NCBI GenBank assembly: GCA_013166775.1
Contig: JABLTJ010000012.1
Coordinates: forward strand, 1 to 64,000
Source of the DNA: Promethearchaeati archaeon
GTDB lineage: Archaea; Asgardarchaeota; Heimdallarchaeia; Heimdallarchaeales; Heimdallarchaeaceae
Reading direction: 5' to 3'
DNA: 64,000 bases
The notes below the pieces were generated by a model that saw only the letters and a list, made by a program, of their open reading frames with translations, did no database searches and was not told the DNA's origin. This document shows, piece by piece, positions 16,099 through 22,527 of the stretch. How positions within the stretch are numbered: the stretch's first letter is position 1; each line of letters opens with the position of its first letter. A program made the position numbers and the translations under genes.

Positions 16099-18231
16099 TT
16101 AATCACCATGCATTTTCTTCTTTTCTTTCTTCTTCATATCTCCCAGTGTATGCATTGAGACTGTATCTGTTTCTTTACCATTTGCTATTTGTAACAATAT
16201 CATTTTTACTTCATTGGGAGCTTCTTTTCCAGTTCTTTCTTTAATCTGTTTTAGCATCGTTTTTATTTCTTTAGGAGATTTTCCTTTTGCATTCTCTTTG
16301 ATATGAGCTAACATTTCTGGGGACAATCCTCCAGTAGTCATATGTCCCATAGGAACCTTCATAGGTTGTATATGTTCTTCCTCAAGTTCTTCAGGTTCAA
16401 GTTCCTCTGGTTTAATATCAATTTCCTCCAAACCTTGATGAACATAATAAGTGTTGTAGAGATCGGCATAAATACCATCTTCTTTCATCAGCTCATCATG
16501 TGTCCCATTTTCCACCAGTTTCCCTTCTTCTAAAACAATTATTCTATCAGCGTCTTTTATTGTAGAAAGTCTATGAGCAATTACAAAAGTGGTTCGTCCT
16601 CTAAATAACTCTCTTTGAGCAGCTTGAATCAATGATTCTGTATATGCATCTAATCTACTAGTAGCTTCATCAAGAACTAGAATTCTAGGATCTGCAAGCA
16701 TCATTCGAGCAATTGTTATTATTTGTCTTTGTCCAGAGGATAGCTTTTTACCGCCTTCAACAATCATGGTGTCATATCCATTTGGCAAAGCATCAATGAA
16801 TTCATCAGCATTTATCTTCTTAGAGATTTGTTTGACATCTTTTTCTGTTGATTTTGGAGCTCCATACAAGATATTTTCCATGACAGAACCTGTAAATAGA
16901 AAAGGCTCTTGCGTAACTAAACCAATTGCGTTTCGCAAGGATGATTGTGTAACATCTCTAATATCTTGTGATCCAATTCTAATCTCACCTTCTTGAACGT
17001 CATAAAACCTTGTGAGAAGAGATGACATTAATGTTGTTTTACCTGCACCAGTATGACCGACGATTGCAATCATCTCACCAGGTTGTGCAAAAAAACTCAC
17101 ATCTTCTAAGACGTTTATGTTCTTCTCATACGCGAAGGTTAGATTTTCAAAATGAACACTATCATCATCTTCTTGTAAAGGTCTAGCAGAATCTGAATCT
17201 TCTACAGCAGATTTCGCTTCAAAAACATCGATTATTCTATCCATTGCTCCAAAAGCAGCTTCTAGTTGTGGGAAGACCATAGAAAGCATTACTATTGGAA
17301 ATAGAAATTGTTGAGACAGATTGACAGCAAGATAAATATCTCCTAAAGGAATTGTGGTGGTTTGATTAATCCACCCACTGAAATAAATTATCACTGTAAA
17401 TAGTAAATAGCTTAGAGAAGTCATCGTTGGCATAACGAACATCATTAACATACCGAATTGTTTAGAATATTTGTAATGTTGTTGATTCAATTCTCGGAGT
17501 TCAGTTGCTAGTTCCTCTTCCCTATTAAATGATTTTGCAACTGCGATTCCAGTAAGACCTTCTGCCATCTTGCCAGAAACAACACCAAACGCTCTTCTTA
17601 CTCTTAAGATAATTTTGCGTCCAAAGTAACTTAACACTCTACTCATCGCAAAAGCGATAGGAATAGCACAAAGAGAGATAAGAGCTATCATCCAATTTGT
17701 AAGAAGAAGAATTATGAATGATCCAATAATTAATAGCAAATGTGAAACGATACCTGTTGAGAGTTGAACACCTGTGGCCAATTCTCCAGTATCTGCGGTT
17801 ACTCTTGCTGTTATATTACCTGACTGTTCTCTCTTTAAGTAAGCCATATCTGAATAGCTTAATTTGTGATAAACATCTGCCCTGACCTCATGCAACATTT
17901 TTGAATTCATTTTAGCCATTATTCTAGTAGAAAATGAACTTATTATCCACCCTGTAATAGTAAGAGCGAAAAAGATTATAGATAATGGTAAGAGAGACAT
18001 GAAATTCACCTCTCCTCCTTGAATAGCGTTTAGACCATGTCTAATTATAAGAGGATTAATTAAAGCTGTAACTGAATAGAGAATGGAAAGCAAACCTACA
18101 ACTATTATTGTCCATATGTACTTCTGAAGATACACCCATAAATTACTGACCAAGATTTTAGTTGATCGAGCTCTCTCGTATTTTTCAAGTCCTAATGCTC
18201 TTCCAGGACCTCTTCTTTGACCGTGTGCCAT
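16099..18231 (-). CDS. ABC exporter half-transporter (TMD+NBD), consensus-site subunit, with charged Met/Lys-rich C-terminal extension
   Basis: GHTGAGKTT, LSSGQRQ, LVLDEATS, IAHRLST. Confidence 0.92.
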   Translation of the reverse strand: MAHGQRRGPGRALGLEKYERARSTKILVSNLWVYLQKYIWTIIVVGLLSILYSVTALINPLIIRHGLNAIQGGEVNFMSLLPLSIIFFALTITGWIISSFSTRIMAKMNSKMLHEVRADVYHKLSYSDMAYLKREQSGNITARVTADTGELATGVQLSTGIVSHLLLIIGSFIILLLTNWMIALISLCAIPIAFAMSRVLSYFGRKIILRVRRAFGVVSGKMAEGLTGIAVAKSFNREEELATELRELNQQHYKYSKQFGMLMMFVMPTMTSLSYLLFTVIIYFSGWINQTTTIPLGDIYLAVNLSQQFLFPIVMLSMVFPQLEAAFGAMDRIIDVFEAKSAVEDSDSARPLQEDDDSVHFENLTFAYEKNINVLEDVSFFAQPGEMIAIVGHTGAGKTTLMSSLLTRFYDVQEGEIRIGSQDIRDVTQSSLRNAIGLVTQEPFLFTGSVMENILYGAPKSTEKDVKQISKKINADEFIDALPNGYDTMIVEGGKKLSSGQRQIITIARMMLADPRILVLDEATSRLDAYTESLIQAAQRELFRGRTTFVIAHRLSTIKDADRIIVLEEGKLVENGTHDELMKEDGIYADLYNTYYVHQGLEEIDIKPEELEPEELEEEHIQPMKVPMGHMTTGGLSPEMLAHIKENAKGKSPKEIKTMLKQIKERTGKEAPNEVKMILLQIANGKETDTVSMHTLGDMKKKEKKKMHGD

Positions 18232-20096
18232 TATTTAGAACCTCCTTCTAGAACATCAATATCACTATAAACACCCATGCTTTCTGCCATTGGAAGATGC
18301 TGACACATAAACTGATAGTCGACACATCTCTGCAATAATTCTTCATGGGAACCAATATCGACTATCTCTCCTCTTTTCATAAGAATAATAATATCAGCAG
18401 CAACAAGTGTTGTAAGCCTTTGAGTAACAACAATACTAGTGCGATCTTTCATCAGTTCCTCCATAGCATAACGAAGTCTAAGTTCTGTTTTTATGTCAAC
18501 AGCACTTGTACTATCATCTAAAAGCAGCAGTTTAGGATCTGATAATAGAGCTCGTGCTATTGCTATCCTTTGTCTTTGACCTCCAGAAAGTGTAACTCCT
18601 CTCTCACCAATCACTGTTTCATATTTGTTGGGTAGAGTTTCTATAAACTGCGAGATTTGTGCTCTTTCAGCTGCAGATTTAATCTCTTTATCAGATGCTT
18701 GTGGTTTAGCAAAAGTTATATTAGCTCTCAACGTATCAGAGAAAAGGAAAATATCTTGCTCAACCATTGTTACATTCGATCTTACATAATTAGTGTGTAT
18801 TGAGTCTAGTCTAGTTCCGTCAACTTCTATTGATCCATTTGTTGGATCATAGAGTCTTAAAAGAAGCTTAAGGATTGTTGATTTTCCTGAACCTGGACCT
18901 CCAATCAAAGCAACTTTTGAACCTGTAGGTATTGTAAAAGAAATGTTTTTCAGCACTACTTTCTCAGTCCCAGGGTAAGCAAAATTTACATCTTTGAAAT
19001 GAATATCTTTTTCCCAATCGCCCTCGATTGGATTTTCAGGTTGCTGTAGTGGATCGTCGAAAGTCATCATAGACCATAGTCTTTGAGAGTTTTCAAGACC
19101 TGCTTGTAGCATGATTAAACGTTGGGGTATCATGAAATTTTGTCTATTAAGTGACATAAGTAAACCTAAGATTGATATTAATACTCCTATTGTAAAAGAA
19201 GTCCCAGTTGAAGATGTTACCATCCAGAGTCCATAAGCAAATGCTCCAGCTGTAACAACAATAGTAATCAATGCTGGCCAATAAAAAGCGCTAAGAAATC
19301 CTTCTTTCTTCATATCTTCTGCATATTCCAAACTTTTCGCATTAAATTTGTTAATCTCTTTTTCATGATTATCAAATGCCCTGACAACTTCCACTCCTCT
19401 AAACATTTCTTGTGAAATAGCTGATAGATCACCAAGATCAGTAGCAAGTTTTTGTCTAATTGGTCCTACCTTTGCAGCATATCTCCAAGCAATTATTAGA
19501 TAAATAGCAAAGGATACAGCTAAAACTACACCAACTATCCAGTCATACTGTATTAAGAGAACAGTTGTAATAATAATGGTAAACATAGAGCTCAATAACA
19601 TTCTAAAACCTGGGTGAATAGCCATTCGAATCTGATTAATCTCGTTCATACCCATTGACAAAATAACACCAGAATCATTGATATCATAAAATGCCATTGA
19701 GTGATCCTGAATTACTTCATAAAATTCTTGTCGCATGTCTCTTTGTACTCTGAAGGTTGCATCAGCCCAGATATAAATATTCAGACTAAGTGACACCCAA
19801 CTAATTAGAACGAAAATAATCATTCGTACTATAAGCGAGTTAAATTCGGTCGAAAAAATCGTACCTGCATTGATATCAATCAAAAGGATATCTAATACAT
19901 CTCCAACAAGAGCAATTGTTTTTGTTGTTAGATACGTACTTGCTACGAGTAAAACCAATGCAAAACCATACATCAAAGGTTGTCTCTGAAAGGCGGACCA
20001 AAACCATCGTGTAGCTGATTTGTATTTCTTTGTAATCTCTAGTTGAATTTCTGGACTATACTGTGTTTTCTGTTTTTCAATAGTTGATGTTGCCAT
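18231..20096 (-). CDS. ABC exporter half-transporter (TMD+NBD), degenerate-site subunit
   Basis: GGPGSGKST, LSGGQRQR, LLLDDSTS (E to D), VTQRL (H to Q); TAATG overlap with partner gene. Confidence 0.92.
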   Translation of the reverse strand: MATSTIEKQKTQYSPEIQLEITKKYKSATRWFWSAFQRQPLMYGFALVLLVASTYLTTKTIALVGDVLDILLIDINAGTIFSTEFNSLIVRMIIFVLISWVSLSLNIYIWADATFRVQRDMRQEFYEVIQDHSMAFYDINDSGVILSMGMNEINQIRMAIHPGFRMLLSSMFTIIITTVLLIQYDWIVGVVLAVSFAIYLIIAWRYAAKVGPIRQKLATDLGDLSAISQEMFRGVEVVRAFDNHEKEINKFNAKSLEYAEDMKKEGFLSAFYWPALITIVVTAGAFAYGLWMVTSSTGTSFTIGVLISILGLLMSLNRQNFMIPQRLIMLQAGLENSQRLWSMMTFDDPLQQPENPIEGDWEKDIHFKDVNFAYPGTEKVVLKNISFTIPTGSKVALIGGPGSGKSTILKLLLRLYDPTNGSIEVDGTRLDSIHTNYVRSNVTMVEQDIFLFSDTLRANITFAKPQASDKEIKSAAERAQISQFIETLPNKYETVIGERGVTLSGGQRQRIAIARALLSDPKLLLLDDSTSAVDIKTELRLRYAMEELMKDRTSIVVTQRLTTLVAADIIILMKRGEIVDIGSHEELLQRCVDYQFMCQHLPMAESMGVYSDIDVLEGGSK

Positions 20097-21056
20097 TTAA
20101 TTCAGCTCCTTCAAGAGTTTGCTTATTGATTCTTTTCTTTCAACAAGTTTGATTTTAAGATACTCTTTAGCTAGTTCTCTCTCATCCTCTGATTCAATTC
20201 TGTCCAGATGTTCTTTAACAAGACCTGGATGCCTCAGAAAAACTCGAAAACTTGGCAAAGGCAAACCATGTTCCATAAACATTCTTGAAAATGGTCGTTC
20301 ATTTTGCTTTCCTTTATGATGAAGCAAATATTTTCTGTCTTCATGAGGGATGTCATCTGCTAATCGTCTGAACACATCTCCAAAAGGATTGAAGAATAGA
20401 ACTTTTCTTTGTTTTTTAGGCATAAAATGTTTATCATCTACATGGAAAACAAAACCTGTAATATCAATAATATTGATTAGTAGCCTTGCTAATGTGTTTC
20501 TTCCCAGCTCTGTAATTTGGTAGATTTTCTTTAATCTTCCTCCCTCTTTGTCATCTTTGACATACTCAATCAAACCACTTTTCTCTAAGGATTCTATTGC
20601 AGGATAAATTCCACTAATATTGCTCCAAATTGTGGTCATTGATTTTATTTCTTGAACAGATTTTTCCAAATCCTTAGTTATCTCAGAGAGGTAAGCTAAA
20701 TCCTTTTTGATATTGTCTTCTTTATCCCTAGTTAGAAGGTTCTTTATCCGAGGATTTAACTTGAATATTGGGCAGTCCTCAATACTCTTTTCTATAGCTC
20801 TCCTCTTTGAATTATACTCATCTGTATTAATAATATTTTTTGTAATTAGTTGTTGTAAATCATGAAGAGTCTTTATATGATCATCAATGAATTCCAAACT
20901 GTTTCTTCGTTTTTCATATAAAATATCTGAAGCTTTAGAACACATCTCATAGGCATGAGAACCTTCAGGAGAACGAGCAAGGTGTATTAAAATCGCAATT
21001 TCCCCTAATTTTCTTGCTAGCTTCTCTTCATATTTGCTTGTTAAATTTTCTTTCAT
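20097..21056 (-). CDS. PadR-family regulator with a large internal insertion
   Basis: GEIAILIHLA...SHAYEM and GIYPAIESLEKSGLI...GGRLKKIYQITELG; first gene of the ABC operon. Confidence 0.78.
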   Translation of the reverse strand: MKENLTSKYEEKLARKLGEIAILIHLARSPEGSHAYEMCSKASDILYEKRRNSLEFIDDHIKTLHDLQQLITKNIINTDEYNSKRRAIEKSIEDCPIFKLNPRIKNLLTRDKEDNIKKDLAYLSEITKDLEKSVQEIKSMTTIWSNISGIYPAIESLEKSGLIEYVKDDKEGGRLKKIYQITELGRNTLARLLINIIDITGFVFHVDDKHFMPKKQRKVLFFNPFGDVFRRLADDIPHEDRKYLLHHKGKQNERPFSRMFMEHGLPLPSFRVFLRHPGLVKEHLDRIESEDERELAKEYLKIKLVERKESISKLLKELN

Positions 21057-21726: not shown

Positions 21727-22410
21727 TTATTTTTTGGTAAAAAACCAAAAGAATTTTCGTTTCTTTTTCGTTTCTTCTGAAACAGTTTTTCTTAATTCAA
21801 TAACTCCATCACGTAATGCAAGTTTATAAACTAAGTCTCTAAAACCTTCAGGTTCCTCTTCTTGTTCAATTACATACACCAAAGGTATTCGTTTTCTTTC
21901 TGTTTCTAAAGCTCTAGTTATCCTACCAGCTTCATATTTTTCCTTAACTTGACTATCTTTTCCTATCCAGACGAATATTTCATTATAAGCATCTAAAACA
22001 AAAGCATCATCTGATTTGAAACCTCGATAATCTATGGGAATTTCTGTTGTAATAATCTCACCCTTATCATTTTGCTTGATTTGTAGGAGTTGATAGTCTT
22101 TTTCAAATTTCTTCTCAATTTTCTTCAGAATTCGTGGAGTATCACCTTCTGTAATCTTGAAAGAAATTATTTTCTTGAATTCTTCAGGTTCTTCATTTTC
22201 AGATATAGTTTTGATTTTTAAATCCTTTTTCTTCTCTTGAAGGATTTTTGCTGACCAAATTCCAGCAAATTTATCATCAACATATGATTTTGAACCCAAC
22301 CATAACCAAAAAACACTCTCTGTTTCTACAATATATACATCTCCTCTATAGAATACATATGGTTCATTTAAAGGAACCAAATCATTTCCTACTATTCGAA
22401 AAATCTTCAT
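21727..22410 (-). CDS. Two-domain gelsolin-like actin regulator (Asgard 2DGel type)
   Basis: FYRGDVYIV/WLWLGSKS/EEPEEF (G1), ILKKIE linker, FKSDDAFVLD/IFVWIGKDS/EEPEGF (G2); start at ATG 22410 preferred. Confidence 0.88.
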   Translation of the reverse strand: MKIFRIVGNDLVPLNEPYVFYRGDVYIVETESVFWLWLGSKSYVDDKFAGIWSAKILQEKKKDLKIKTISENEEPEEFKKIISFKITEGDTPRILKKIEKKFEKDYQLLQIKQNDKGEIITTEIPIDYRGFKSDDAFVLDAYNEIFVWIGKDSQVKEKYEAGRITRALETERKRIPLVYVIEQEEEPEGFRDLVYKLALRDGVIELRKTVSEETKKKRKFFWFFTKK

Positions 22411-22527
22411 AAGGTTTTTTTTCTGCAACGCATAAATACTTTTGCACAACAAGTTTTTTACTGATCTTAGAGTATTTATTTCATTTTTGATGAAAAAGAA
22501 TATATACAGTCTAGAGATAAAATAATT

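Follow-up and report, generated by a model that had tools for sequence, protein, structure and literature searches.

In eukaryotes, gelsolin and villin combine three or six gelsolin-homology domains with a WH2-like linker that follows the actin-capping domain, and their activity is controlled by Ca2+. Membrane lipids regulate eukaryotic gelsolin as well, with phosphatidylinositol 4,5-bisphosphate (PIP2) acting through basic sites within or between the domains and not through a terminal anchor peptide. Here we analyze a gene for a two-domain gelsolin (2DGel), a family already known from Asgard archaea, which lies on the minus strand at positions 21727-22410 of a 64,000-nucleotide stretch of DNA (the window; positions 1 to 64,000 of contig JABLTJ010000012.1, GenBank assembly GCA_013166775.1) from a Heimdallarchaeaceae archaeon of marine sediment. 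The protein shares with gelsolin and villin the domains, the position of the linker and, as its residues predict, the regulation by Ca2+. It also has a C-terminal tail, the end of which we propose to be a membrane-targeting peptide.

Among described systems, Heim2DGel from Heimdallarchaeota LC_3 (PDB 7WHF; Akil et al. 2022, PMC9433394) comes closest. Both proteins consist of two gelsolin domains plus a WH2-like motif at the center, have identical acidic residues at the aligned, putative Ca2+-site positions, extend the last helix of domain 2 by a segment with an Asp in the tail (D222 in LC_3, D201 here), and finish in a tail with a basic-hydrophobic end. They are, however, only about 37% identical, and the LC_3 protein has insertions in both domains. 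Its tail is 68 residues long, lacks an LRxTV motif and closes with a MinD-like KKGFFGRLFGR, whereas the tail described here has 32 residues, an ELRKTV motif and an FFWFF cluster. The Thor 2DGel and 2DGel3 (PDB 7C2G, 7C2H; Akil et al. 2020, PMC7444086) share the two-domain core and a central LRRV-type motif but have no C-terminal extension; they are about 200 residues long, and representatives of 195-202 amino acids end in acidic residues. Outside the gelsolins, the best comparison is with the membrane-targeting sequences (MTS) of MinD (Escherichia coli, and MinD4 of Haloferax volcanii) and FtsA, which likewise form a basic-hydrophobic extreme terminus behind a flexible linker. The MinD MTS is comparable in charge and interfacial energy, and peptides near-identical to it occur on orthologous gelsolins. 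Nevertheless, the host proteins are non-homologous, the end of the gene studied here is a cluster of aromatic residues in which the amphipathic pattern is weak, and its role at the membrane is a prediction.

A first-pass annotation of the window had described a two-domain gelsolin of Asgard type that has an LKKT-like motif in its linker, a second such motif behind domain 2 and a basic-aromatic tail. The minus-strand translation of 21727-22410 (stop codon 21727-21729) is exactly that product, a protein of 227 amino acids (P0001), and all three elements were recovered at the expected places, namely LKKI at residues 95-98, LRKTV at 206-210 and the basic-aromatic end at 215-227. The start is the ATG at 22410, which is shared by homologues that begin with MK[VI][FY]; an alternative start at the upstream TTG at 22452 would lengthen the protein by 14 non-conserved residues. 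Pfam PF00626 (Gelsolin) matches in two stretches (E 2e-18), the better one covering residues 123-191. Its best solved relative is 7whf_G (E 2e-42), ahead of Thor and Loki 2DGels, and the matches to 7whf_G, 7c2g_G and 7whg_G are full-length. An AlphaFold2 (AF2) model built from 43 homologues, with a mean predicted local distance difference test score (pLDDT) of 72, contains two gelsolin folds separated by a disordered linker, and a Foldseek search with it again ranks 7whf first (E 3e-20) and also finds 7c2g/h and 7whg. In total 74 homologues were found, most of them 225-230 residues long, and the relatives are labelled Heimdallarchaeaceae.

The distinctive part of the protein is its tail, which comprises the 32 residues 196-227 when the domains are delimited as in Akil et al. 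2022 (PMC9433394). Conservation was measured in an alignment of 43 homologues (A1) as the mean frequency of the top residue per region. The domain cores reach 0.72-0.75, the ELRxTV segment 0.80 and the terminal peptide 0.76, whereas the spacer at residues 211-218 falls to 0.48. By these figures the tail consists of two conserved islands and a variable spacer. The first island is LRKTV (residues 206-210, window 21781-21795, minus strand like all parts of this gene), conserved as ELRxTV in Heimdallarchaeaceae. The spacer begins with residues 211-214 (21769-21780) and is modeled with a pLDDT of about 44; its Lys-rich second half, residues 215-218, is counted here with the terminal peptide. This second island, residues 215-227 (21730-21768), contains a Lys/Arg cluster, FFWFF and a final TKK, and its physicochemistry as well as the ends of orthologues make it a candidate membrane-targeting peptide.

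Evidence for this assignment comes from the ends that orthologous 2DGels carry at the same position. The LC_3 protein (P0237, 284 amino acids, PDB 7WHF) has KKGFFGRLFGR as its last 11 residues, and the same end is found in 33 of 52 short LC_3-like proteins, which follow the pattern KKGFF[SGA]RLFG[RK]. The MTS of E. coli MinD, which is used as a transplantable tag, is KGFLKRLFGG (PMC5471200), and by sequence comparison the LC_3 end is very close to it. In other families of the class, basic-hydrophobic ends such as KKSFWSKLKFW, KKGFWSKIFRR and GLFSKIKRIFGK stand behind unrelated linkers of 10-60 residues. Among the gene's own orthologues ELR[KR]TV stays fixed and the end takes FFWFF, GFLSFLKKK-like, RFFSFLRKK-like or KKWWEFWK forms, a pattern to be expected of a physicochemical signal. 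Ends resembling a recognized MTS are thus interchanged at one position among orthologous gelsolins. A further variant is P0076 (258 amino acids, labelled Hodarchaeota), which is without a C-terminal tail but has an MSFLRRLF-type peptide at its N-terminus, linked to domain 1 by about 40 K/E-rich residues.

Several side observations concern the same region in relatives. P0076 gives the impression that the anchor was shifted to the opposite end of the protein. The long Hodarchaeales 2DGels (P0079, P0236, P0240, P0248 and P0261, about 390-415 residues; locus L049) carry a conserved C-terminal domain of about 190 residues that ends in ...RLLQ.GH.YR and appears as an alternative to the short anchor tail; a Pfam search with this domain gave zero matches. 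Finally, the publication on the LC_3 structure (PMC9433394) is silent on the MinD-like KKGFFGRLFGR end of the protein that was crystallized.

The composition of the terminal peptide agrees with this comparison. The last 11 residues have a charge of +5, five aromatics and a Wimley-White interfacial energy of -1.5 kcal/mol, compared with -0.6 for the MinD MTS, and only about 0.2% of the open reading frame (ORF) ends in this genome provide a C-terminal 11-mer that is equally basic and interface-favorable. For the 2DGel ends that were compared, net charges range from +3 to +6 with interfacial energies equal to or beyond that of the MinD MTS, a combination found in 0.1-1.5% of the C-termini of the genome's long ORFs. 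With its variable spacer and low pLDDT, the tail also presents its short basic-hydrophobic peptide at the extreme terminus and behind a flexible linker, as an MTS does. A basic Trp/Phe-rich end of the gelsolin type occurs in this genome only on two tailed gelsolin paralogues. The other matches to the search were the end of a membrane protein, a single long ORF whose pattern differs, and some short, spurious ORFs, and the idea that the end is a general sorting signal of this organism was rejected, as only the two gelsolins carry it.

The second of these paralogues (P0053, contig C22, 20121-20792, minus strand) ends in KKWWQFWK and leads to a motif with a much wider distribution. Two of the motif scans yield lower bounds only. 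KWWQFWK followed by a stop has at least 120 matches in genome contigs, compared with about 0.3 expected from base probabilities, and 63 in viral contigs, where each of two scrambles with identical composition gave 0. Among the 184 matches listed, a true stop codon directly follows the motif in 178 and a K or R precedes it in 159. The wobble bases track the GC content of the genome, so selection acts on the peptide. Scans varying one position at a time give the profile K-W-[W/Y]-[Q/E/...]-[F/I/V/L]-W-K, with conservative substitutions at the hydrophobic positions. The carriers are unrelated, mostly signal-less proteins (TPR, PP2C phosphatase, HTH, eCIS-core and carboxypeptidase-regulatory-like; loci L086-L268) from many bacterial phyla, phages, a Methanoperedens and Heimdall archaea, and 98 of 114 complete carriers are devoid of an N-terminal hydrophobic segment. 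Our literature searches for a KW[WY]x[FILV]WK end motif found none in searchable papers. The motif before the stop is present in the C22 paralogue and in most family members, and the gene in the window, which ends in FFWFFTKK, departs from it.

Such an almost letter-for-letter recurrence, absent from the scrambles, could also be explained if the terminal peptide were a tag read by a protein, as in sorting, degradation or docking to a scaffold, and not a lipid anchor. The last Trp, which is nearly never replaced (59 of 62), would fit recognition of this kind, but the remaining positions tolerate the conservative changes W/Y, F/I/V/L and Q/E/K. Moreover, orthologous gelsolins carry quite different basic-hydrophobic peptides at this place (MinD-like, SFWSKLKFW-type, FFWFF), which argues for a physicochemical role, and the gene's own end is unlike the motif. 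A reader protein common to bacteria, phages and Asgard archaea is also hard to name. We consider a protein-read tag improbable.

The body of the protein provides the context in which the tail would act. Domain 1 (residues 1-87, window 22150-22410) is delimited by Pfam, by the 7whf_G alignment and by the homologue alignment, and is modeled by AF2 as strands with a long helix at 46-59; its G23-D24 and D45 are invariant and identical in Heim2DGel of LC_3. The inter-domain linker (residues 88-104, 22099-22149) was defined in alignment A1 and has a pLDDT below 50 at residues 90-103. It contains the central WH2-like motif LKKI (residues 95-98, 22117-22128), the equivalent of which is described for the Thor and Heim 2DGels (PMC9433394). 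D90 and L95 are invariant and K96 is conserved at 81%; the last position of the motif is I, F or V in this family, as opposed to the T or V of the Leu-basic-basic-Thr/Val signature. Domain 2 (residues 105-189, 21844-22098) includes most of the better Pfam stretch and is recognizably homologous to domain 1 (hhalign probability 95.6%).

The last helix of domain 2 is extended by residues 190-205 (21796-21843), as indicated by the 7whf_G alignment, by conservation and by the AF2 helix that starts at 190. This extension includes D201, which is 98% conserved and aligned with Asp222 of Heim2DGel. Asp222 is identified there as a Ca2+-binding residue of the ordered part of the tail, ten residues by which the last helix of domain 2 is prolonged (PMC9433394). 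D24, D45, D135, E157 and E171 are conserved as well and identical to the LC_3 residues in a pairwise alignment, from which their putative assignment as Type I/II Ca2+ ligands of the two domains is derived. On the same grounds, D201 probably binds Ca2+.

Eukaryotic gelsolin has a C-terminal latch helix, and a tail that starts beside a probable Ca2+ ligand, as here with D201, might similarly be an autoinhibitory latch that is folded on the actin-binding surface until Ca2+ releases it. This is hard to reconcile with a linker that varies between 10 and 60 residues and with a relative in which the peptide is N-terminal, and AF2 docks the tail on neither domain. In addition, full-length Heim2DGel is inactive in U2OS cells before ionomycin and the loss of F-actin after ionomycin is comparable with or without the tail, although the resting state of the truncated form was not described (PMC9433394). 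Taken together, a latch appears highly improbable.

The same study reports that the LC_3 tail is disordered beyond its first ten residues, that it is dispensable for the Ca2+-triggered loss of F-actin, and that by itself it excludes GFP from the nucleus; its role was called unclear by the authors. These data also bear on the view that the tail, being basic, attaches to F-actin through the acidic surface of the filament, or else to some other acidic partner, and thereby promotes side-binding or bundling. The net charge of +5 over the last 11 residues would be compatible with such a function, and side-binding to actin has been proposed for the C-terminal extension of 1DGelX (PNAS 2020). Still, deletion of the LC_3 tail made no noticeable difference to F-actin loss in cells, and the GFP-tail fusion was described only as excluded from the nucleus, with no co-localization with F-actin reported. 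The aromatics, furthermore, are conserved along with the charge, which electrostatics alone would not require. A basic-aromatic segment that binds both membranes and F-actin does exist in the MARCKS effector domain, but for the 2DGel tail we regard F-actin binding as quite improbable.

A different question is what the first island of the tail does. Over the 43 homologues E205 is conserved at 98%, L206 at 86%, R207 at 91%, K208 at 47%, T209 at 81% and V210 at 77%, so ELRxTV is as strongly conserved as the domain cores; an L[KR][KR][TV] motif within the last 40 residues is found in 0.76% of this genome's ORFs of at least 150 amino acids. The first-pass annotation had read the helix plus LRKT after domain 2 as a second WH2-like motif, by which domain 2 and LRKT would bind a second actin in the way domain 1 and LKKI bind the first, a model that is compatible with a membrane anchor. 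LRKT does fit the L-basic-basic-T/V signature (PMC9433394), and divergent relatives have LRRV or LRKV at this position (FRKM was also seen). The spacing of the two motifs is parallel: a near-invariant Asp lies five residues before the Leu in both (D90...L95 and D201...L206), and in a direct reading of the sequence an EPExF helix lies 17 residues upstream of the Leu of LKKI and 16 upstream of that of LRKT. In the solved complexes of Loki and Heim 2DGels with actin, the first 10-20 residues after domain 2 are located on actin, and domain 2 of MKD1-2DGel alone has been published to sequester actin.

Other features of the island speak against a second WH2-like motif. Its second basic position is K in only 47% of members and T, S or E in many others. 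The motif is confined to Heimdallarchaeaceae; it is missing from the LC_3-like 2DGels that were read, including the characterized LC_3 protein, and from tailless paralogues. The solved Thor structures 7c2g/7c2h are also without it; in the alignment, their chains of 200 residues reach only as far as the boundary of domain 2. An hhalign comparison of domain 1 plus linker with domain 2 plus tail stops at residues 82/194, before both motifs, and so does not show homology of LKKI and LRKT. A Pfam scan of the tail alone, with E up to 10, returned neither WH2 nor the villin headpiece, only chance-level G5 and Musclin; for WH2 this is a weak test, because the accepted central motif, taken as a control, gives no match either. 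The helix before LRKT is domain 2's own packing helix and not a free WH2 helix, and E205-L206 is kept in some tailless paralogues, which suggests a structural role as part of the helix extension. We thus judge the binding of a second actin through LRKT to be unlikely, and from its conservation LRKTV is better described as a proximal-tail element with a probable role at actin or at the Ca2+ site.

The explanation that best accommodates these observations is that the protein is a Ca2+-regulated 2DGel whose tail ends in a predicted membrane-targeting peptide, by which capping and severing would be concentrated at the membrane. We give this reading a probability of about 0.6. The membrane-tail idea of the first-pass annotation has in this way gained strong comparative support, as the interchange of orthologue ends, their likeness to MinD and the N-terminal version all point in its direction, and it would fit the LC_3 tail-deletion data. 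Precedents exist in archaea: MinD4 of H. volcanii has a long linker, a conserved 'extended MTS' and a terminal MTS, and among Asgards OdinFtsZ1 and OdinSepF bind liposomes through terminal helices. Literature searches for a membrane anchor on Asgard gelsolins found nothing. Relative to the searchable literature, then, the anchor reading of the tail, the ELRxTV island and the KW[WY]x[FILV]WK end motif are new.

In the mechanism that we envisage, the protein would be inactive at resting Ca2+, by analogy with Heim2DGel (PMC9433394), and binding of Ca2+ at the domain sites and at D201 would open it. Domain 1 would then cap or sever, the LKKI linker would run up the actin face and domain 2 would bind beside it, LKKI and domain 2 together holding the side of the filament. 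The proximal tail (residues 196-210) would prolong the last helix of domain 2, carry the Asp and end in LRKTV, which most likely sits on or near actin or stabilizes domain 2. Eight to ten residues past LRKTV, the terminal peptide would insert at the cytoplasmic face of the membrane, as the terminal MTS of MinD or FtsA does. A single peptide of this type binds weakly, as is the case for MinD (PMC8155659), and attachment would therefore depend on several gelsolins per filament or on local anionic lipid. As an outcome, capping and severing would be concentrated at the membrane and capped barbed ends would be held within a few nanometers of it, while the tailless paralogue, presumably cytosolic, would serve the cytosolic pool.

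Several points weigh against this interpretation. Lipid binding is attributed to 2DGel tails by comparison, and that the LC_3 tail stays outside the nucleus in human cells could be explained in other ways. In the AF2 monomer residues 190-225 form a single helix, but the pLDDT at its end is about 44, and the model is therefore no firm guide to the tail. The helical hydrophobic moment of the gene's own end is 0.31, compared with 0.45 for MinD and 0.65 for the KKWWQFWK paralogue. The end is therefore a basic-aromatic cluster, with no clean amphipathic helix. That KKWWQFWK recurs almost exactly in bacteria and phages could mean that it is recognized by proteins and not by lipids. Archaeal ether lipids, moreover, differ from the bacterial lipids with which MinD-type anchors were characterized.

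The genomic setting adds information on the gelsolin paralogues. The bin that includes the window, as contig C7, has a size of 3.85 Mb and a completeness of 89%, and the genome encodes two actins, one Arp-like gene and three 2DGels: the gene in the window, the second tailed copy on contig C22 with its KKWWQFWK end, and a tailless copy of 204 residues on contig C112. Two 2DGel matches, one tailed and one tailless as judged from the match spans and the loci that were read, were found in 20 of the 24 other genomes of the genus. The third 2DGel found here may be a true extra paralogue or the product of a mixed bin; GC content and tetranucleotide composition of C7, C22 and C112 are all typical of the bin and do not separate these two possibilities. 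In a quick tree, midpoint-rooted and with some tail columns kept, the tailless clade is nested within the tailed ones, and this suggests that the tail was lost after duplication. The two actin genes (C1:257723-258865 and C97:141791-142927) are 83% identical to each other; the first has 98-99% identity throughout the genus, and the second is limited to some of its genomes.

The genes around the 2DGel encode PadR, DUF1801, DUF308, NhaA and ABC transporters, and an orthologue that is 81% identical lies on another contig in the same PadR-ABC-ABC-APH order. The suggestion that the gelsolin complements an 'NPF-like protein' encoded in the window finds no support in this gene order, the neighbors being unrelated to the cytoskeleton. 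The PadR-family regulator has long insertions and precedes two ABC exporter genes (window 20097-21056 and 16099-20096, both minus strand). The stretch occurs in just three public sequencing runs, all of them DNA from marine sediment and from the same study, and the search listed no RNA run that contains it.

Asgard archaea form dynamic, actin-filled protrusions, and we know of no protein by which their actin regulators are connected to the membrane. In these closest archaeal relatives of eukaryotes, such a connection would be provided most simply by a gelsolin that has a membrane anchor of its own. A more far-reaching version, which we offer tentatively, is that the gelsolins of the Heimdall group are Ca2+-switched cappers and severers, tethered to the membrane by a portable end peptide and with LRxTV as an extra actin contact, that they hold and remodel barbed ends there as an archaeal forerunner of cortical actin control, and that KW[WY]x[FILV]WK is an undescribed membrane tag of bacteria, phages and archaea. 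The LC_3 protein that has been purified and crystallized carries the same kind of end peptide. With an anchor, the published and unexplained effect of the LC_3 tail on localization would be reinterpreted, and a short end motif on many unrelated bacterial and phage proteins would obtain a function.

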